Source of the DNA: Escherichia phage vB_EcoM_ESCO8
Sequence record: OM386653.1
Direction: 5' to 3' (one strand)
DNA length: 64,000 nucleotides
Shown here: one piece after another, positions 29,219 to 45,615 of the stretch
Numbering within the stretch: position 1 is the first letter of the stretch
How the letters are laid out: each line of letters begins with the position of its first letter
Program-made: the position numbers and the translations under genes
The notes under the pieces: generated by a model
Databases searched by the model: none
What the model was told of the DNA's origin: nothing
What the model saw: only the letters and a program-made list of their open reading frames with translations

Positions 29219-29520
29219 CTGTTACAAGAACAGCAACATAGGAACATCATTAATGAAGGATTTAGTATAGGATTTCCCTATCAATTATTCTATATATACC
29301 TATTATTTTTAACACACCCCTTTGTACATAATATAGACAAATAAATATCTATGCCACAAAAATTTTCCGGTATACCCGATTTATTTCGACACACCCCCTT
29401 TTCATAAACGTAAAGTCAATAATATCAATAACTTGCCGCAAAATACTGCTCGCTTGCGAGAGGTGCTTAACGCGATTTTCAGCGCCCCCCGATTTCTGCC
29501 GACCGTCCCCCTCAAATATC

Positions 29521-29543
29521 AATGAGAATTATTATCATTTGCA
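29521..29543. promoter_or_regulatory. Fur-box-like palindromic site 1 (aatgagaattattatcatttgc)
   Basis: 14 of 19 match to GATAATGATAATCATTATC by eye; AATGA...TCATT inverted repeat. Confidence 0.35.
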
Positions 29544-29718
29544 TTATCATTCAATGACTTATAAGACTTTTGATTATTTTCTGAGCAAGAAAGGCACTAC
29601 TCACAACAAAACAGATAAATTCTAAGTAAATCAATGGCTTGGCATTTCTAAACATCTATATACACCTTGCCAAATGAAATGATCTGGCGTGAAATAGTGC
29701 CACCCGTGGAAGATAGCT

Positions 29719-29737
29719 GATAATGATTCTCATTTGC
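29719..29737. promoter_or_regulatory. Fur-box-like site 2 (gataatgattctcatttgc)
   Basis: Exact GATAATGAT half-site; 15 of 19 to Fur consensus; near-identical copy at 42212-42230. Confidence 0.4.
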
Positions 29738-30568
29738 ATACTTTCTGTACTATAAAACCGACTAAAAATCAAGATAATTCTATTTTATTGCGCTTTTAAG
29801 AAAGTAGGCTCAACAAATGGTAAGTTATATTGCAACAAATAGGGATAGTTATGCCCGACAAATAACAACAATAGTATGAAAAATCATCTATTCGGATGTA
29901 AATAATTTTGCGCAATAGCACTGTGTTCCCATAGCGCCCCCTGGAGGGTGGCGCATTATGATCATCAATGTCATTATTCACCATGTTTATTATTGCATAG
30001 CTTATATTATAGCCAATGTTCTAAACATTAGCTAATAATAACGCACCGCAACAATGTAAGGGAATACAATATACCATGTATATTGTTGCGCTTGCAATTG
30101 TTGCAAGCTACATAAGCACAGATAATAACTATCGGTGATGGTTATTATGTGGGGTGTGTAGTTGCGTTATTATTAGCCGCCTATGTGTCCGGCATAGGCT
30201 GCTAATGATACGCTTGCGAATTATATTTCTTGTTATAGTTATTGTATGGAATGATTACTGTATGAAATGATTATTTAGGTAATAGATAGGAAGGTAAAGA
30301 TTAGATCATAAATAGATAGGATATTAATTATTTAGTAATGTTACTAACAATTTAATAGTTACTTTGTGCAACAATTCGATAGATTATAGTTATAGTTTTA
30401 AAGGTTAGATAGATTATATTTAGCTTAGTAATGATTTATATTGGTTATTGTTGTTTAATATAAGGTTATCAATGAGATAGTAACAGTAAGTTATAAATAA
30501 AGGTGAGATAATTAGTTTTAATTTAGTTAGATAACTTATTATTTTATAGGTTAGATGGTCATAAGTTA

Positions 30569-30589
30569 AGAATGATTATCATTATTGCA
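30569..30589. promoter_or_regulatory. Fur-box-like site 3 (aagAATGATtATCATTATtgc)
   Basis: Perfect 13-bp palindrome AATGATtATCATT matching the Fur-box core. Confidence 0.4.
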
Positions 30590-30626
30590 TTATGCAGTTT
30601 ATTGCATAAATAATCAGCTATAAATA

Positions 30627-30645
30627 AGAATGATTATCATTTAAG
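30627..30645. promoter_or_regulatory. Fur-box-like site 4 (aagAATGATtATCATTtaa)
   Basis: Same perfect palindrome 45 bp from site 3. Confidence 0.4.
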
Positions 30646-30855
30646 AGGAAAGACAAGAAAAAGGCTGTTTTTTCCCGATAGTTACATTGAGAAATTAAAA
30701 ATAAGCGGTCTAAAACACGCTGTAAGCGCCTTATGATCTTCATGGTATGGTTGTTCATCTGCTCCTTGATTAGCTCGATACCGCGATCTATTCACTTTTT
30801 TCGGTGAACGTTTTTGATAGGTAAAAGCTATCATATTTATTTAGGTAAAAAGAAA

Positions 30856-30872
30856 GGGCGCTTTGTGCGCCC
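30856..30872 (-). terminator. terminator hairpin (gggcgcTTTGTgcgccc) at 3' end of minus-strand array
   Basis: GC hairpin followed by T-rich run on minus strand, just downstream of CDS 30889..31272. Confidence 0.5.
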
Positions 30873-30888
30873 TGGTATGAAATGTTAT

Positions 30889-38191: not shown

Positions 38192-38286
38192 ATTATTTTC
38201 TATTTCTTCCGTAATAGCCTAATTTATGATCTAAGCTAAAACGTTTTGTGAGATAGGTCGAACGATGTTTCATTTTTATATCTCCT

Positions 38287-38526
38287 TTACATTCCAACCA
38301 TCGCGGCGCGGATTGCAGTTTTACTGAACTTGTAACCGTCTGGCGTTTTATCTTGATCCATACTTTCAAGAAATAACATCATATCACGCGCTGCGTCATT
38401 CTTATTGGTGTTAGCTGCGATAAATTCACGCGCAAGATTATAAAAACCTTCATCATTGTTGATCCAAAGGCTTACATTCCAATGAGTTTTGTTTTTGTGA
38501 CCTAAGAACATTTTTGATTTAGCCAT
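38287..38526 (-). CDS. hypothetical protein (79 aa)
   Basis: ORF track. Confidence 0.45.
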   Translation of the reverse strand: MAKSKMFLGHKNKTHWNVSLWINNDEGFYNLAREFIAANTNKNDAARDMMLFLESMDQDKTPDGYKFSKTAIRAAMVGM

Positions 38527-38548
38527 GATGTTAATCTCTTTTTCAGTG

Positions 38549-38609
38549 AGGCGGGAACTATTCCCGCTCTCTATGTAATACAGTTTACTCTTTTTATTCG
38601 TGCTGTCAA
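38549..38609 (-). promoter_or_regulatory. PeSL-like cassette (hairpin GCGGGAActaTTCCCGC)
   Basis: TTGACA 38604-38609 (minus), hairpin 38549-38572. Confidence 0.5.
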
Positions 38610-38614
38610 TGCTT

Positions 38615-38980
38615 TTATAAATCTTTTTTACGTTTTACATCGCTTGCATGACTGTATACAGTGATCCCATTGTCACGGCAAAAACGGGAAAGGTAGGCAT
38701 AATTTGAAAACTCTTTACCTTCCAGGTTGATAACCTTGCTAAATTCTTCCATTGCTACAGTGTCAAAGTGATCCCCGTATCCATATTGGAACGGCACGTT
38801 TACTACTTCGATCAGTTTACCGCCGATCTCAACGTCAACCATCAAAGAGAAATAAGTATTACCATAAGACTTTTGAAACCAGCGACGGGCGCTAATATGT
38901 ACCGCTTCAATGCTGGATAGTTCAATTTTAGCAGTGTTAGCCAGGGTAGCATAAGCAGAAACATTGATATTTTTAGCCAT
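38615..38980 (-). CDS. hypothetical protein (121 aa)
   Basis: ORF track. Confidence 0.5.
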   Translation of the reverse strand: MAKNINVSAYATLANTAKIELSSIEAVHISARRWFQKSYGNTYFSLMVDVEIGGKLIEVVNVPFQYGYGDHFDTVAMEEFSKVINLEGKEFSNYAYLSRFCRDNGITVYSHASDVKRKKDL

Positions 38981-39075
38981 AGTCTTTAATCTCTTTTGAT
39001 TAGTTAGGAGTATTCCCGATAAAAGTTATTATGCTTGTACTATCGTTCGTTGTCAATAGCACAAGACTAAAACTT

Positions 39076-39255
39076 TTAACGATAATCATCATAGGCTTTA
39101 TTGACCTGGCGAATATAGCATTCAAAAGCTAGATCAATAGATTTATATTCACGGATATAATCACCATAGGAAACCACATACATTTCTATAGCTTCCTCAT
39201 ATGCCAAGATGATAGAATCTAAACCTACGATCTCAGTCTTTGCAATAATAGCCAT
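39076..39255 (-). CDS. small acidic protein (59 aa)
   Basis: Not in track; between cassettes. Confidence 0.4.
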   Translation of the reverse strand: MAIIAKTEIVGLDSIILAYEEAIEMYVVSYGDYIREYKSIDLAFECYIRQVNKAYDDYR

Positions 39256-39401
39256 GCTTTTATTCCTTAGTAATGTTTCAATCTATATAAGCATTATAGC
39301 TTACTGATTTCAGGTGTCAAGTGATTTTTTATTTCACCTTATGGGGCGTTGCCCCGCTTTATGTGGTACATATTACGGGGCTTGTTTGCATATGTCAAGC
39401 C

Positions 39402-39947
39402 TTACACAATACAATTTTCATAATTTTTTAGGGCTTGTCTTTTTTCCTCTTCTGTCGGCATGTATGGCTGGATCTCTTCCTCTTCCAGGGTAGGCATGAT
39501 TTCTTCCTCTTCCTCCTGGTCTTCCTCTTGCGCTACGGCAACAAGTTTATTGATCTTCTCCTGGGCTTTAATCAATTTTGCATCTAGCACCATTTTAGCG
39601 GTGTTGTATACCGTCCATGCCATGCGTTTTTCTTCGTATGCTTTATCTAGTGCGGCTAATTTAGCGGGATACTCTTCTAACACCTTAAAAGCCGGATCAA
39701 TGCTATATAAGGGATTATTTTTAGCGTCATCGCTTGGATCTGCGGCGCTTGCAATGTCAGCGTTACCATTTGCCAGCCAACCAGGGCGAACGGATCGCGT
39801 CTTTGTGTGCCCGTTGCTCTTTGCCGCTCGATTCCCTATCTGCTCCCCGCTGTACCCTTCCATGTGATCGATCATGTCATCTGGTATTATGCGCGGATCA
39901 TTAGCGTCATGCTTTACCCATGACTGGATCACATATTCACGCCCCAT
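39402..39947 (-). CDS. hypothetical protein with acidic Glu-rich C-terminal region (181 aa)
   Basis: ORF track. Confidence 0.5.
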   Translation of the reverse strand: MGREYVIQSWVKHDANDPRIIPDDMIDHMEGYSGEQIGNRAAKSNGHTKTRSVRPGWLANGNADIASAADPSDDAKNNPLYSIDPAFKVLEEYPAKLAALDKAYEEKRMAWTVYNTAKMVLDAKLIKAQEKINKLVAVAQEEDQEEEEEIMPTLEEEEIQPYMPTEEEKRQALKNYENCIV

Positions 39948-40209
39948 GTTCGTTCGCCTCTTCTGTTAGTAGTTTACACACCTTAAACATGCTTGCCGCG
40001 TCTTTTGACGGTAGCCAGCCTATGCGATACACTCCAGGATCTGGATTCGTTATATCTGTTAATTGAGCGTTACGATGATTAAAGATAGTGTAACCGCCAC
40101 CAGCACGGGGATAAACATTATCTTTAAACCTGATAGCGTATCTCGCCAGGTTGAACGTTGTAGCATGTTCAAAAGCGATCACATTATCAAAAACTTTTAG
40201 AAAAAACAA
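39937..40209 (-). CDS. hypothetical protein (90 aa)
   Basis: ORF track. Confidence 0.4.
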   Translation of the reverse strand: MFFLKVFDNVIAFEHATTFNLARYAIRFKDNVYPRAGGGYTIFNHRNAQLTDITNPDPGVYRIGWLPSKDAASMFKVCKLLTEEANEHGA

Positions 40210-40211
40210 GA

Positions 40212-40358
40212 TTATCCTCCCCAGCGTTTAAAGCCCGTTGCACGGTTATTTTTTAACTCTCGTTTTAGTCTCTTGCAACGGTTTACAAGTGCAAACCGTG
40301 CCGGAGTTGTAACAGTAGCGCCGTTTTTGGTGTGAATACTCATTACATATTGTTTCAT
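40212..40358 (-). CDS. small basic protein (48 aa)
   Basis: Not in track; downstream of hairpin 40376-40396. Confidence 0.35.
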   Translation of the reverse strand: MKQYVMSIHTKNGATVTTPARFALVNRCKRLKRELKNNRATGFKRWGG

Positions 40359-40436
40359 AAAGTTTTATCCTATGTAAGCGGGAATAGTTCCCGCTTTAAG
40401 ATAGCTTATCAGGTTTTAGTGCAATGTTAACCGTTT

Positions 40437-40799
40437 TTATTCGTAAATTTTACCGCTTTCTACCCATACCATAACACGGCGCATGTTATCCCATGCATCT
40501 TGTCGCAGATTTAAGGCATGCAATTCTTCGGTTGTGCTCATACCTGGTACGGGCTTGCTATATGTTACAAAGAGATCGCCAGCATATTCATAAGCCAGGG
40601 TAAGATCACATTGAATCATCTTTTTAAGCATAGCATTAAGCATCATATTAGCGGCATGTTGATCACGTTTTAGCGGTAGCGTTGCGATCTGTGAGCGATA
40701 GCTTTCGATCCGTGCATCCACTGCATCACGTGGAAGATTTTTCACGTCGTCGCGGAAAGATACCAGGTTTAACATGATAGTATTGATTTGCTTGCTCAT
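40437..40799 (-). CDS. hypothetical protein (120 aa)
   Basis: ORF track. Confidence 0.5.
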   Translation of the reverse strand: MSKQINTIMLNLVSFRDDVKNLPRDAVDARIESYRSQIATLPLKRDQHAANMMLNAMLKKMIQCDLTLAYEYAGDLFVTYSKPVPGMSTTEELHALNLRQDAWDNMRRVMVWVESGKIYE

Positions 40800-40821
40800 T
40801 GCATTACCCTTTCTTTGATTT

Positions 40822-40882
40822 GGCGGGAAACCATTTCCCCGCCTTATGTGGTATATATTACAAAATTATTTTTAAGTGTCAA
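40822..40882 (-). promoter_or_regulatory. PeSL-like cassette (hairpin GGCGGGAAAccaTTTCCCCGCC)
   Basis: TTGACA 40877-40882 (minus), hairpin 40822-40843. Confidence 0.55.
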
Positions 40883-40885
40883 GCC

Positions 40886-41158
40886 TTAAAGCAAAAACGC
40901 TACATCTTGCGCTTTTAGTGTAGTGTCGATCATTTTCGGGCTTTTATAATCCACAAAGCGCGCGGTTTTTTCAATAACGAAGCCGAGATAATCTTGTTTA
41001 TTGAAATTACATTCTTTTTTAAATGTTTCCCGTGCCACGGTGATCGCTGCATCCAGGGATAAACGCCCATCAATATTGATGTTAGCGAAAGATCCGCCAC
41101 CGCGCATAGGTTTACCAGTGATGCCAGCTACGATCATTGATGCGCTATATGATGCCAT
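40886..41158 (-). CDS. hypothetical protein (90 aa)
   Basis: ORF track. Confidence 0.45.
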   Translation of the reverse strand: MASYSASMIVAGITGKPMRGGGSFANINIDGRLSLDAAITVARETFKKECNFNKQDYLGFVIEKTARFVDYKSPKMIDTTLKAQDVAFLL

Positions 41159-41180
41159 GATTATTTCTCTCTTCTGTTAT

Positions 41181-41238
41181 GAGCGGCACTATTGCCGCCC
41201 TATGTGATACATCTTATCAGATTAAAAAACGTTGTCAA
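41181..41238 (-). promoter_or_regulatory. PeSL-like cassette (hairpin GCGGCActatTGCCGC)
   Basis: TTGACA 41233-41238 (minus), 16 nt, TAAGAT, hairpin 41183-41198, then RBS and ATG of 40886..41158. Confidence 0.55.
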
Positions 41239-41609
41239 GAATATTTTTAAAAGATAATAACCGCTACTACAATCCAAAATGGAACGGCTAGAATGATAGC
41301 GTTAATCGTTCCAACCGTCAAGCTGTTTTCTTTCTTGATCATCGTTATCAACCTTTTATAAGTAATGTTATTGTGACGGTGGATTGTGGAGATCCTCACC
41401 TTTGCCCGTCCTGCATTGCGCCCTCCTTTTGTTTATTGTCGTTGTGCCTCGCCCCCCTCGACAAGATGAATAATACGCTACCAGGTGAGGAACGTCAACC
41501 CCTTTTTTAATCTTTTTTCATTTCTTTTTTGCTTGCTATCTATAAAGGAAAGGGGCTATTATCTTTCTACCGCGCCAACCAGGGCGCACATCAAAGAAAG
41601 GGCGATACC

Positions 41610-41876
41610 ATGACAAATACTACTTTACACCTCATGCACTCATTAGGCTGGCAAGGCGGCACGGTGCACCAGGTAGCAAGCGCAACGGGCTTAAAGGTTG
41701 AAACCGTTCTCAACCTGGGCGATCATAAGGTGGAAGAAATAGATCATTTTGATACGTTCGCAAATGGTTATCTATGGGCTTGCAGTGGCGGCGGGGAAAG
41801 CAAGATCCCGCCAGGGGCGCGGGGCGACATGTATTTTTGGCTAGGTGTCCTATCCTGGCAAGAAAACAAAAAATAA
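41610..41876 (+). CDS. hypothetical protein (about 88 aa), GC-rich
   Basis: Track ORF 41529..41876; internal ATG (MTNTTLHL) after aaagaaagggcg preferred; higher GC than surrounding phage DNA. Confidence 0.35.
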   Translation: MTNTTLHLMHSLGWQGGTVHQVASATGLKVETVLNLGDHKVEEIDHFDTFANGYLWACSGGGESKIPPGARGDMYFWLGVLSWQENKK

Positions 41877-41878
41877 TC

Positions 41879-41907
41879 TTGACAAGCCCAGGGATCGGGC
41901 TTATACT
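41879..41907 (+). promoter_or_regulatory. strong sigma70-like promoter (TTGACA-N17-TATACT)
   Basis: Perfect -35 and near-consensus -10; no ORF for about 800 bp downstream. Confidence 0.4.
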
Positions 41908-42138
41908 GTTTTACATACAGAAGAGGAAGCGCCACCCCCACGGCGTAAAGGCGGGGCTAACATACCAGGGCACTACTGGTTGGAAGGTTGATCGCCGGTA
42001 GCTCGTCTAAAATAAATTTGTAAAGAAATGTAAAGATAAAAATAATCGCTTGCTTTTGTTGTTGGTTATGCTATTCTTATTGTATGGCGAGGGGACACGG
42101 GAGCGCGAGACAAACACCGCCCCTGCGCGTTATTCTCT

Positions 42139-42252
42139 AAATGAGAAAATTCTCATTTGCTAATGATTCTCATTCTCTTACTGAGAATGATTATCACTTA
42201 CATACTTAAATGATAATGATTCTCATTTACAAATGAAAATGATTATCATACG
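42139..42252. promoter_or_regulatory. cluster of five Fur-box-like palindromic sites
   Basis: aatgagaaAAttctcatt (8+8 palindrome), AATGAttcTCATT, gAATGATtATCAc, GATAATGATtctCATTtac, AATGATtATCATa within 114 bp. Confidence 0.4.
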
Positions 42253-42269
42253 CACACCCATAAAAACAC

Positions 42270-42478
42270 GAAATTGAACTTTTCATTTTTGATTTTTCTA
42301 CGGAAAAAGGCAAAAAACTTTAAATAAACTGGGGAATTTTTAAAAAATTGAAGTTTTCATTTTCAAAATCTGGATAGAAATACGTACAAAAACTTTAAAT
42401 AATTTTGACCAAACTTGAACTTTTCATTTTCAAAATTTGTACCCAAAAATCTGTAAAAACTTTAAATAATTTTGTCCT
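42270..42478. repeat. three tandem ~66-74 bp direct repeats (ttgaaSttttcattttcaaaat ... aaaactttaaataa)
   Basis: Units begin near 42274, 42348, 42414; each has a TTGAA..TTCAA dyad and a TTTAAATA box. Confidence 0.55.
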
Positions 42479-42688
42479 TTTTATAAAAATGATTTTACTG
42501 TTCTGTTATAAGTAGTAGTTAAGAGATAGTATGCCTTTTAAAGATCAGATACCATAGTCAAACAAACAAATTAAATACTTTATTAACAGAGTACAGAATA
42601 ATATTTACTCTGGATATATTATTCAGAGGGTGGATTTCCGTACATGAAACCCACACCCCTTTTTATAAAAATAAAAATTTTCAAAATA

Positions 42689-43240
42689 TCAGGAAATATC
42701 AGATTGTGCTTTTAGATAAACAGCAAGGTCTGTATGCCATTTTCCTAAAAGATTTTGTCCTTTCCAACAGTCCTTATTTTCCACATCACGATCCCACATT
42801 CCCATTTTGATACCATAAATAGAATCATAAGGGCTTGCCTCTACGAACTCCTTATCTGCGTAAGCGATAAGTTTATTTTTGAGATCTTCATTTTGTGTGT
42901 ATTTAAGATACAAACCACGCTTGACAATCTTCTCCCGTAAAGAAGTCCAAGTAGCTTCATCGTAATCTTTAACTAATCTACCTAGTCGCTTATAATATGC
43001 CTGTTCTTTTTCTCCTGTATATCTTAGATCTCCGGTTAAAATAGAAGATGCAATGTTGTAATCATAAAACAAACATGCTTTTCTCCACATCATATATTGT
43101 TCCACACAAGTAAATTCAACAGAACTTGTAATAGAATTATTATACTTGGGAGCTAAAGGTTCAATAAAAGATGATAGATACCAGTTGCTAAATTCATCTT
43201 TTGCCGAGAAGAAGAACACATACTTATCAGTAATCCGCAT
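42689..43240 (-). CDS. NADAR-domain (YbiA-like) protein
   Basis: 183 aa; FFFSAKDEFSNWY, CVEQYMMWRKA, GQNLLGKWHTDLAVYL fit the NADAR pattern (F.F....SN..., ..EQ..QA.KA, G.NLLG). Confidence 0.65.
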   Translation of the reverse strand: MRITDKYVFFFSAKDEFSNWYLSSFIEPLAPKYNNSITSSVEFTCVEQYMMWRKACLFYDYNIASSILTGDLRYTGEKEQAYYKRLGRLVKDYDEATWTSLREKIVKRGLYLKYTQNEDLKNKLIAYADKEFVEASPYDSIYGIKMGMWDRDVENKDCWKGQNLLGKWHTDLAVYLKAQSDIS

Positions 43241-44413
43241 TTACATCTCCTTACTGTATACTAATTTGCCACCATATTGTGTAATAATTTTTTGAAGATT
43301 TTCCAAATCAGAAACACTTACTGTTTCTGTATAACCATCTTTCAACTCTCTTGCCGTTAAAATACCAGTTTTTAATTTTTTCTTTATAGCTCTTTCAGCA
43401 GCCCTACATTGTTTCACTGTGCTAAAATCATATAAACAAATACGCCCCATAAAAAACAGATTACGGCTCTTTTGACCGTTTAATCGTCTATCGCTATCTT
43501 TAGATATACCAAACTTAAGAGCAACTATAATATCATTATCTTTAACAATATTAATATATAATTGCTGTTGATTATGACCAGCACACTGTGGACAACCTTG
43601 ACCGAGGCTTAATAAATTACGAGCACTCCCTATCTGCTCACCATGCACAAGACAAAGATATTTAAACTTACCTATAGAAGAGGGTTTGGTAATCCAATCT
43701 ACCCAGACATACCCTTTCCCTTCTACTTCCTTTTTTACCCTATAGGTGATCTGGTCTTCTGTATACTGATAGTTCCCACAACGACACGGAATATACCCTT
43801 GTTTAAGGTTATGTCCTGCAGAGTAAAATTTACCATCACAAACACCTGCTTGAACATATTCATCATGGGAGCAAACAGGACACTCAACCATCCATACTGC
43901 ATCACGCTTGTTACGTTTCCCTGTATTGGTGAAGATAGTGCCTTCCTTAAATTCCCCTGTAGAAAAGAAATCTGCAATATGTTGATCGTCGGACATTGTT
44001 TGTCTCTCCCTCTTACATTGTGGACAACCGCTACCACGTTTAAAATTGTTAATACTTGTAGTATCCCATTTATTACCACAATGACACAACAAATCAAGTT
44101 TTGTTTTATTCCCTTTCCATTCTCCCACGTACCCTAACACCTGATACCCCCTCTTCTGTGCTATCTCTTCCAAGATCGGCAATTCTGTTTCCCATGTTAA
44201 CGGCTTCTTACCAGAACAGATAGGACAACCACGTCCCTTCTTAAAATCATTAATGTTCGTGGTGTTCCACTCTCCATGTTTAGGACAAGATAGCTTAAGT
44301 TTAGTCTTGTTCCCTTTCCATTCACCAACATAACCCAGGATTTGAATATTGCGATTTTTAGCAAGGGGTGTTAATTCTTCTTTATATTGTTCCCATGATT
44401 TTGGTGCTGTCAT
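43241..44413 (-). CDS. zinc-ribbon-repeat protein with C-terminal GIY-YIG/T5orf172-like domain (putative nuclease)
   Basis: 390 aa; two tandem ~45 aa repeats (LGYVGEWKGNKTKL.L.C...G.W.TT.IN.FK.G.GCP.C), further GCPQC motif, C-terminal LYINIV...ALKFGISKDSDRRL resembling the T5orf172 KxGxT...RR core. Confidence 0.4.
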   Translation of the reverse strand: MTAPKSWEQYKEELTPLAKNRNIQILGYVGEWKGNKTKLKLSCPKHGEWNTTNINDFKKGRGCPICSGKKPLTWETELPILEEIAQKRGYQVLGYVGEWKGNKTKLDLLCHCGNKWDTTSINNFKRGSGCPQCKRERQTMSDDQHIADFFSTGEFKEGTIFTNTGKRNKRDAVWMVECPVCSHDEYVQAGVCDGKFYSAGHNLKQGYIPCRCGNYQYTEDQITYRVKKEVEGKGYVWVDWITKPSSIGKFKYLCLVHGEQIGSARNLLSLGQGCPQCAGHNQQQLYINIVKDNDIIVALKFGISKDSDRRLNGQKSRNLFFMGRICLYDFSTVKQCRAAERAIKKKLKTGILTARELKDGYTETVSVSDLENLQKIITQYGGKLVYSKEM

Positions 44414-44487: not shown

Positions 44488-45615
44488 TTAAAACACGCTT
44501 GCCAAAGTTGCACCATTGGTGATAGTTGGTTCCAGAACAATACGGAAAGAATCTTCTGGATCATCACTAAACACAACGATTTTACCGCCTGTAATAAGAT
44601 CTGCTTTCATTTTTGTCGCATTCAATGGAATTCGAGCATCTCCTTCATCATCAAAAACCACGTAAGAGCTATTAGCAAGGGCTTCTTTAGAGTCTGCATC
44701 ACTTGGAGATGACAAGTACACGTCTAGTGTGCACGAGCCACCTAAAAAGATTGCAGGTGTGAAGTTATGCCAACTAGATACCCAGCTAACTTTCTGAAGT
44801 TTCCCATTAATAACAACGCTGCTGATATCCCACTTATTACCACCACCCAAAGAAACGCCCATCATAGAGATGCATTCTTTAAAGGATAAATCAGGGTAGA
44901 AATTAAGTTCTTCTACTATACCTTGGATCACATCAAAGGACAACTCTAAACTTACATCCCAAAGCCTTTGGAAATTATCAAAGTGTGCTTTGTTATCCAG
45001 GTTTTTATCTAAATAGTCAATCATAGTTTCTAGTGAGATTTTATCATAATTAAAATTATAAAACACACGACTAGGACGATTTAGAAAGAATTCAGAGATA
45101 AAGCCACTGTTTTTAGTTAGAATAAACAGTTTATTACCACTGCCAGTACCATCTAACAAAGTGAGAAGTGCTTCTTGATCTTGTTTCTTCTCATACACTT
45201 TATCAAACTCGTCAAAAATAATCACTGCTTTGTCGGTGATCTTGCTAATAAGTTCAATGAAATTAGCATCGCTGTAGGCTTGAGTAACCATAATAGTTGG
45301 AATACCTTCTTCTACAAGGTCACGACTAATGAGTTTGGCTAACATAGTTTTACCACTACCCTTAGTTCCTGTCAGAAGCAATCCTGTATTTTTACCTTGT
45401 GCACTCCGGCGATGGAATGTACGGATAACGTGATTTGCTCGTTTTTCTGTTTCACCATACAGAACATCCGGTACACCTGTCAGATTACCACGGCTTAAAA
45501 AATAATTGCCAAGGGGATCACGACTAACAGTATAGAATCCAGGTGGAAGATAGTTAGATTCCACGCCCATATCTTTATTTACACTTACAATATCACCATA
45601 AATCGTGTATTTCAT
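44488..45615 (-). CDS. AAA-type P-loop ATPase, paralog 1
   Basis: 375 aa; Walker A GTKGSGKT, Walker B IIFDEFD, NRPSR arginine motif; about 45% identical by eye over the ATPase core to 60181..61341. Confidence 0.6.
   Translation of the reverse strand: MKYTIYGDIVSVNKDMGVESNYLPPGFYTVSRDPLGNYFLSRGNLTGVPDVLYGETEKRANHVIRTFHRRSAQGKNTGLLLTGTKGSGKTMLAKLISRDLVEEGIPTIMVTQAYSDANFIELISKITDKAVIIFDEFDKVYEKKQDQEALLTLLDGTGSGNKLFILTKNSGFISEFFLNRPSRVFYNFNYDKISLETMIDYLDKNLDNKAHFDNFQRLWDVSLELSFDVIQGIVEELNFYPDLSFKECISMMGVSLGGGNKWDISSVVINGKLQKVSWVSSWHNFTPAIFLGGSCTLDVYLSSPSDADSKEALANSSYVVFDDEGDARIPLNATKMKADLITGGKIVVFSDDPEDSFRIVLEPTITNGATLASVF

Follow-up and report, generated by a model that had tools for sequence, protein, structure and literature searches.

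A candidate iteron-like array of three bipartite repeats in a conserved non-coding module of Escherichia phage vB_EcoM_ESCO8 and its relatives

The repeat array and its units

The 64,000-nucleotide stretch of Escherichia phage vB_EcoM_ESCO8 that we analysed (record OM386653.1; hereafter the window) contains a long minus-strand block of small early genes, and a 1.5-kb stretch lying between the minus-strand genes that end at 41158 and 42689 (41159-42688) houses an array of three tandem repeats of about 70 bp. The initial annotation of this DNA had placed the starts of the units near 42274, 42348 and 42414 and had described their surroundings as non-coding, and we found both points to be correct, as the sole open reading frame (ORF) with a protein-family match between the flanking genes is a small plus-strand one at 41610-41876. 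Judged from its sequence, this is an iteron-like array with long bipartite units, set in a deeply conserved non-coding module (Table 1). We suggest, with a probability of roughly 35%, that it serves as a sequence-specific protein-binding array and would most likely be part of a transcription-activated replication origin. Genome-wide scans were conducted on the 145-kb genome of phage outra (MN850645, a phi92-like Justusliebigvirus), to which a 3.5-kb query around the repeats matches at 99.9%; the window corresponds to the reverse complement of positions 79,090-143,089 of the outra record.

Supporting that the repeats are real, Tandem Repeats Finder (TRF) recovered them at 42344-42474 (period 67, 2.0 copies, 81% matches, score 178), a repeat-family search grouped three 67-nt copies, starting at 42270, 42344 and 42411, into a single family, and the 14-mer AAAACTTTAAATAA occurred as three exact copies (42314, 42389 and 42456), with no near copy of fewer than two mismatches elsewhere in the window. 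The starts of the family copies are 74 and then 67 apart, and the copies have 61, 100 and 81% identity to the reference copy, the first being the more diverged. The 22-mer TTGAASTTTTCATTTTCAAAAT, from the left part of the unit, had two matches where 0.03 were expected by chance. A profile built on the conserved right-hand box of the unit (Box B, below) found three matches in the 145-kb genome, all of them in the array and scoring 22-26 bits, the next best match scoring 13.5. The array thus has three conserved direct repeats that lie in non-coding DNA and are unique in the replicon, as iteron-type arrays do. The GenBank records of phages inny and alia carry a bare, unexplained "repeat_region" feature at the array; we found no literature discussing these repeats, and nothing usable on transcriptomes or origin mapping for either of the two subfamilies considered below.

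An alignment of 13 units from five Stephanstirmvirinae lineages (outra, Citrobacter phage Tr1, Klebsiella phages KP2025 and FKP3, and Phapecoctavirus ASO2A) was gap-free except for one 1-nt gap column in outra unit 1. Each unit contained two conserved blocks, Box A (AAAcTTtAaaTTTTsnTTTTs) and Box B (gAAAAAsTTTAAATAAT), the second with sixteen nearly invariant positions, separated by approximately 20 nt that vary freely. The distances from TTGAA to CTTTAAAT in outra are 44, 45 and 45 bp in units 1, 2 and 3. Most lineages have cTTTAAAT in both boxes, and the block therefore holds six related sites. The sequence nATAAT is retained in two or three of the three units per lineage, with a purine or G run 2-5 nt downstream, and the middle unit of Phapecoctavirus is decayed. 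Unit-to-unit distances in Stephanstirmvirinae are 72-76 bp and then 66-67 bp. The unit had been described at first as one TTGAA/TTCAA dyad plus one box; instead we see two conserved boxes at a fixed distance, and the dyad holds for units 2 and 3, is missing from unit 1 (TTGAAC..TTTTTGATT) and is not kept in relatives.

The DNA of the array also has unusual predicted physical properties. Among all 220-bp segments of the genome, mean predicted curvature is greatest in the repeat block, and it drops sharply at 42500; at each of four other Stephanstirmvirinae loci tested, the block coincides with the most curved segment of the locus or is only a few bases away from it (98.6-99.7th percentile), although these values come from our own wedge model with Bolshoy-type parameters and are approximate. 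In a nearest-neighbour stability scan of the whole outra genome, 42319-42618, which comprises units 2-3 and the AT-rich stretch that follows, was the second least stable 300 bp, consistent with the AT-rich unwinding element of an iteron origin.

We could rule out that the repeats are coding, as the distances between units are not divisible by three and composition alone, which leaves out stop triplets, keeps several frames open. Annotated genes PVP-SE1 gp202 (1779-2063 of locus L009) and BIS47_205 (phrog_25933; 1808-2152 of locus L011) sit exactly over the three repeats of their phages, and are probably spurious ORFs because the frames there are open through composition alone. Structured RNA was ruled out as well: the 217-nt repeat block folded no better than its shuffles on either strand (z = +0.64 and +1.16), and RNAalifold predicted zero pairs from the aligned units on both strands, leaving neither structure nor covariation in the units.

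Conservation of the array and its module

The 3.5-kb query matched 145 phage records, mostly of Justusliebigvirus and Phapecoctavirus (both Stephanstirmvirinae). The repeat block was 217-219 bp long in 55 of 55 Justusliebigvirus records, with 97.3-99.5% identity, and the copy number is therefore always three, which answers the comparison between related phages that the initial annotation had proposed; in several of these same records the surrounding 3.5 kb had only 92-94% identity. In diverged Stephanstirmvirinae (Phapecoctavirus, Tr1, KP2025 and FKP3) three tandem units likewise occupy the same place behind the Fur-like boxes. Six Vequintavirinae (PVP-SE1, 4MG, CR3, phiTE, BIS47 and FV3) also had three tandem units at the equivalent position, with a different sequence: GAAAAAATACG, 22 nt of T/A tracts and GATCGAGnAC, that is, a bipartite unit with fixed spacing in which GATCGAG stands in place of TTTAAATAAT. 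Unit-to-unit distances in Vequintavirinae are 63-67 bp and then 74-78 bp, so that the order of the spacings is reversed between the subfamilies. Since three units occur in both subfamilies at the same position, three units at this position is, as read from these sequences, an old and maintained feature. The genes to the right of the module differ between genera.

Other origins for this distribution were considered. Inversion of the whole block between subfamilies was hinted at by the reversed spacings and by a match of outra Box A to the reverse complement of the Vequintavirinae core; however, that core is quasi-palindromic and the other lineages had no such match. A host or plasmid origin of the repeat was rejected, there being no match in 5,426 E. 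coli genomes, while among plasmids only the Fur-like boxes were matched (Moraxella). A viral-contig search with TTTAAATAA-N-TTTAAATAA gave only chance matches in AT-rich giant-virus contigs, and a viral-contig scan anchored on the conserved GC-rich sequence of the module found no new lineages. We also noted a motif, TTTGAGATA, present in 2-4 copies downstream of the three repeats in Phapecoctavirus and several Vequintavirinae (L007 4235-4275; L011 2060-2180; L012 2055-2170) and as one weak copy near 42523 in outra.

The array is one element of a module whose order is kept in Stephanstirmvirinae and Vequintavirinae: promoter P1, a GC-rich sequence of about 105 nt, a GTAAA-N5-GTAAA box, promoter P2, a GC-rich hairpin, Fur-like boxes, the repeats, variable DNA and edge boxes. 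Relatives have 1-5 Fur-box-like 7-1-7 palindromes, 170-300 variable nt after the repeats and 2-4 AAATATCA edge boxes. A 1,541-bp query of the module matched 267 records, among which those of Vequintavirinae aligned at the conserved GC-rich part only. This GC-rich sequence is a candidate conserved phage non-coding RNA; its alignment fold showed modest covariation (3 of 16 pairs) and it matched no Rfam family. Over the whole window Rfam gave no match at the gathering threshold, a permissive E-value over the module gave chance-level matches only, and no tRNA or tmRNA was found. The spacer of P1 contains a GC-rich inverted repeat. The box between the GC-rich sequence and P2 fits GTAAA-N5-GTAAA, the consensus of CpxR, and P2 is directed toward the Fur-like boxes and the repeats.

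Fur-like boxes precede the repeats in every relative that we read, and palindromes with at most two mismatches to TGATAATNATTATCA form two clusters only, one in the module and one in the other large non-coding region, with isolated two-mismatch sites near 41336 and at ~117.2 kb (window-oriented genome coordinates, outside the 64-kb window). That other region (29219-30888) is a 1.7-kb non-coding region with several short tandem repeats, Fur-like boxes and a match to a direct terminal repeat predicted in phage BME3.

To the right of the array, 42478-42627 had no BLAST similarity outside Justusliebigvirus. It is followed by a terminator-like hairpin that a simple terminator scan missed; the fold of 42478-42672, which contains it, beat its shuffles (z = -2.59), and the hairpin would end any plus-strand transcription unit that crosses the repeats. 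An identical 15-bp palindromic CCTTTTTATAAAAAT at 42476-42490 and 42658-42672 flanks the variable segment of about 170 bp, and 2-4 AAATATC(A)-type boxes are kept at the right module edge in both subfamilies. Beyond the edge, a gene for a 390-residue CapR/T5orf172-type homing-endonuclease-like protein (43241-44413) lies between the NADAR and AAA ATPase genes; Tr1, KP2025 and FKP3 lack it or have a different version, alia has a longer one, and it probably represents a mobile insertion. Three minus-strand sigma-70-like promoters directly to the left of the module would restart early transcription.

Table 1. Sequence elements of the module and related sites, in window coordinates
Feature	Position	Strand	Sequence or detail	Basis
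Repeat unit 1	42270-42336		Box A 42271-42290 (AAATTGAACTTTTCATTTTT); Box B 42312-42328 (AAAAAACTTTAAATAAA)	Repeat family, exact 14-mer, unit alignment
Repeat unit 2	42344-42410		Box A 42345-42364 (AAATTGAAGTTTTCATTTTC); Box B 42387-42404 (CAAAAACTTTAAATAATT)	TRF, repeat family, 14-mer, 22-mer, alignment
Repeat unit 3	42411-42477		Box A 42411-42431 (AAACTTGAACTTTTCATTTTC); Box B 42454-42471 (TAAAAACTTTAAATAATT)	TRF, repeat family, 14-mer, 22-mer, alignment
P1, sigma-70-type promoter	41879-41907	+	TTGACA-17-TATACT	Promoter scan, 11/12
GC-rich sequence after P1	41879-42017 (with P1)	+	About 105 nt	70-86% identity in unannotated Vequintavirinae DNA
GTAAA-N5-GTAAA box	42020-42034	+	GTAAAGAAATGTAAA	Only one in 145-kb genome; upstream of P2 in all ten relatives examined
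P2, promoter-like	42050-42077	+	TTGCTT 42050-42055, 16-nt spacer, TATTCT 42072-42077	Conserved; 8/12, under scan threshold
Fur-box-like 7-1-7 palindromes	42132-42248		TGCTAATGATTCTCA, TGAGAATGATTATCA, TGATAATGATTCTCA, TGAAAATGATTATCA; directly upstream of unit 1	Repeat search; genome scan against TGATAATNATTATCA
Candidate unwinding region	42478-42627		AT-rich, poorly conserved	Stability scan
Terminator-like hairpin	42628-42664	+	Hairpin then TTTTT	Sequence; contained in fold of 42478-42672
Right-edge boxes	42684-42702		Two AAATATCAG(G) boxes; overlap NADAR gene stop codon	TRF, relatives' sequences
Sigma-70-like promoters	41498, 41321, 41238 (41211-41498)	-	Three	Each 10/12
Fur-like palindromes, second cluster	29524-29540, 29718-29735, 30570-30586, 30625-30641			Genome scan against TGATAATNATTATCA

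Possible functions of the array

The initial annotation had offered a replication origin, a multi-site binding platform or stacked promoters as possible functions. This is partly supported, the first two being the best-supported readings on account of the unique boxes, the fixed geometry, the three copies at a conserved position, the predicted curvature and the adjoining meltable DNA; the steps to protein binding and to replication initiation are ones that we infer. Each unit has two recognition boxes 44-45 bp apart on DNA predicted to be intrinsically curved, and a multimeric protein complex could therefore be wrapped or organised by the three units. Two host-type promoters, the strong P1 and the weaker P2, may fire toward the array, which adjoins easily melted DNA, and the whole could then act as the core of a transcription-activated origin. 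Such a scheme would resemble the primary origin of T7, in which promoters are followed by AT-rich DNA, with the addition of a binding platform like those of lambda and plasmid origins. We favour an origin because the promoters point at the array, meltable DNA adjoins it and the replisome genes are of the T7 type without a recognisable initiator: Toprim and DnaB_C domains are fused in one 590-residue, gp4-like primase-helicase, and the family A polymerase domain DNA_pol_A is found in an 859-residue protein. Promoter-plus-AT-rich origins are established in T7, which has a replisome of this type, and the origin of pSC101 has three iterons.

Several observations weigh against an origin here. We recognised no gene for an initiator or binding protein near the module, whose flanking genes, variable between genera, encode a NADAR protein, a homing endonuclease, a generic AAA ATPase and further proteins of unknown function; the AAA ATPase (44488-45615) was rejected as an adjacent initiator, being Cdc48/p97-like and not conserved beside the module in Vequintavirinae. 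There is no DnaA or IHF consensus site in the module (TTWTNCACA is absent from 41160-42690, the nearest copy lying within a gene, at 42777). At 67-76 bp, the units have 3-4 times the size of classical 17-22-bp iterons; the single boxes, at 17-20 bp, are of iteron size. The curvature model is approximate, as stated, and the Vequintavirinae versions have no high predicted curvature. GC skew tracks gene orientation only. Finally, duplex stability in the other large non-coding region (29.2-30.9 kb) is lower still, and this region also has Fur-like boxes, the least stable DNA of the genome lying at ~30.7-31.0 kb, at or just past the right edge of 29219-30888 (outra-mapped coordinates, offset by ~450 bp from the window), and this 29-31 kb region is a priori an equally good candidate for an origin.

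The same geometry, uniqueness, conservation and predicted curvature would also suit a curved multi-site platform whose role is regulatory or architectural, for instance an array that an early protein of the phage would use like an operator or enhancer, a nucleation site on curved AT-rich DNA for H-NS or another nucleoid protein of the host, or an insulator that separates P1/P2 from the two early operons on the minus strand. We regard this alternative as tentative and somewhat doubtful. Consistent with it, the module is dense with sites resembling those of host regulators (the Fur-like boxes and the unique GTAAA-N5-GTAAA) and lies between early transcription units that converge and restart, the latter at the minus-strand promoters listed in Table 1. 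However, the sixteen near-invariant positions of Box B are at odds with purely shape-driven binding such as that of H-NS, the array is followed downstream by ~170 unconserved nt and a converging gene rather than by a regulated gene, and no gene for a DNA-binding protein is linked to the module.

A more ambitious proposal, which we regard as unlikely, is that more than 250 sequenced rV5-like and phi92-like phages share a control region gated by the state of the host, with the repeats as its docking core; the curved three-unit array, the Fur boxes and the CpxR-type box would tie replication initiation, or genome entry as at the iss of T5, to host iron or envelope stress. A link to Fur or envelope-stress sensing, or to replication control, would if true raise the importance of the array. 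The rV5-like and phi92-like phages are widely used in phage-therapy and biocontrol collections; a module that is kept across two subfamilies while neighbouring genes turn over offers a small and concrete experimental target. Were the array an origin or a host-sensing switch, it would represent a new origin architecture for phages with T7-type replisomes, provide a handle for engineering these phages, and explain why several ORFs annotated as genes across the repeats, PVP-SE1 gp202 and BIS47_205 among them, are probably spurious.

That the units are three stacked promoters we consider improbable. Box B (TTTAAATAAT) would then be a -10-like or T4-late-like element and Box A an upstream element, with transcripts starting 5-9 nt past the three TAAATAAT boxes and proceeding rightward through the ~170-nt segment up to the hairpin at 42628-42664. 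In favour of this are the retained nATAAT with its downstream purine or G run, the plus-strand terminator-like hairpin, the 9/12 score of unit 2 in the sigma-70 scan, and the match of TTTAAATA to the T4 late box at 7 of 8 positions. However, the Box B motif is confined to this one locus of the 145-kb genome, and the resemblance to a sigma-70 promoter (-35 and -10 spaced by 16-18 bp, or a TG-extended -10) is weak, as 9/12 is reached by unit 2 alone, the aligned -35 columns are not conserved, positions -15/-14 are TT instead of a TG extension, and unit 1 lacks the final T of the -10-like hexamer in most lineages (AATAAA or AAATAC, usually AATAAA). The scan itself gave 18 promoter-like matches where 8.2 were expected, AT-rich DNA scoring easily. 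The presumed product is not conserved beyond the genus and the Vequintavirinae counterparts have no -10-like box.

The initial annotation had likened the boxes to the TATAAATA late promoters of T4, and this did not hold up. Over the whole genome TATAAATA occurs 12 times, with one co-oriented copy inside the structural region, and TTTAAATA 20 times, about what base composition predicts, so that neither is enriched or co-oriented with structural genes; together with the Box B profile these counts exclude a general (late) class of phage promoter. Kropinski et al. reported no homologues of gp33, gp45 or gp55 in rV5 (PMC3606486). Going by these sequence counts, the resemblance to T4 late promoters is probably coincidental.

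About as improbable is that the repeats work as RNA, transcribed from P2, from a Fur-controlled promoter or (in Seunavirus and Mydovirus) from a dedicated promoter just upstream, and that this non-coding RNA, like type III antitoxin arrays or the pseudo-ToxI of phiTE, would sponge a nuclease or RNA-binding protein of the host. Plus-strand promoters do lie upstream and a plus-strand terminator-like hairpin downstream, TTGACA-N17/18-GAAAAT or GATACT directly precedes unit 1 in PVP-SE1, 4MG and BIS47, and phiTE, a phage of the same group, evolves a repeat RNA decoy (PMC3475682). However, conserved or stable structure was found on neither strand, the dedicated promoter is missing in CR3, phiTE and Stephanstirmvirinae, no toxin gene lies downstream, and the reversed order of spacings between subfamilies would be odd for a strand-specific RNA. 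The pseudo-ToxI locus itself was rejected as a counterpart, since the phiTE escape locus (106,714-106,772) is different from the phiTE homologue of the module (38,265-40,902) and ToxI had no match in the latter (locus L017) with up to 3 mismatches.

The weakest alternative is a signal for DNA transit, either an injection stop or pause like the repeat-rich iss of T5 or a packaging recognition site, which is based on position only and which we consider very improbable: we know of no two-step injection in these phages, DnaA boxes, a hallmark of the T5 iss, are absent from 41160-42690, phiTE has been reported to be circularly permuted, and the terminase gene is far away. As to position, a direct terminal repeat of 342 bp has been predicted in BME3, a close relative (PMC12210895), and maps to window ~29396-29737, which places the module ~12.5-13 kb (8.6-8.9% of the genome) from it, although this terminus prediction comes from one paper and the BME3 record has redundant ends; the genes between the predicted terminus and the module are all read from module-adjacent promoters. 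For T5, the injection stop is at 7.9%, within a repeat-rich region that is not translated (10.1101/866236).

Comparison with known systems

The array shares with the T5 injection stop region a setting in a large, untranslated and repeat-rich region, a similar fractional distance from the genome end (here a predicted one) and motifs resembling the sites of host proteins; unlike the T5 region, it has no DnaA boxes, does not lie inside a long terminal repeat and shows no sign of two-step injection. ToxI and the pseudo-ToxI of phiTE are likewise tandem non-coding repeats, found in the same phage group and placed between a promoter and a terminator-like hairpin, whereas their units are 36 nt long against 67-76 nt here, and the array has no pseudoknot or conserved structure, occupies another locus in phiTE and has a fixed rather than an expandable copy number. 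With respect to the gp55-recognised T4 late promoters (TATAAATA), TTTAAATA differs at a single position; however, the box here occurs at one locus only and not upstream of late genes, its conservation is extended (AAAAAsTTTAAATAAT plus Box A) relative to the minimal late promoter, and the late-transcription proteins are reported absent from rV5-like phages.

The origin that we propose can be compared with the primary origin of T7 and the iteron arrays of lambda ori and of plasmids pSC101, P1 (oriR) and R6K. In T7, tandem promoters phi1.1A and phi1.1B are followed by an AT-rich region; as there, the promoters of the module would fire into AT-rich DNA, and a gp4-like primase-helicase and a family A polymerase occur without an initiator. 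Unlike those of T7, the promoters here are of the host sigma-70 type, and the repeat array, Fur-like boxes and conserved GC-rich sequences intervene between them and the AT-rich DNA. The iteron arrays differ from the array described here in having single sites of 17-22 bp rather than 67-76-bp units with two different boxes 44-45 bp apart, and here there is no adjacent or recognisable initiator gene and there are no DnaA or IHF sites. They share with it several direct repeats that are non-coding and unique in the replicon, a small and fixed copy number, and intrinsically bent DNA (here predicted) beside an AT-rich, meltable stretch.

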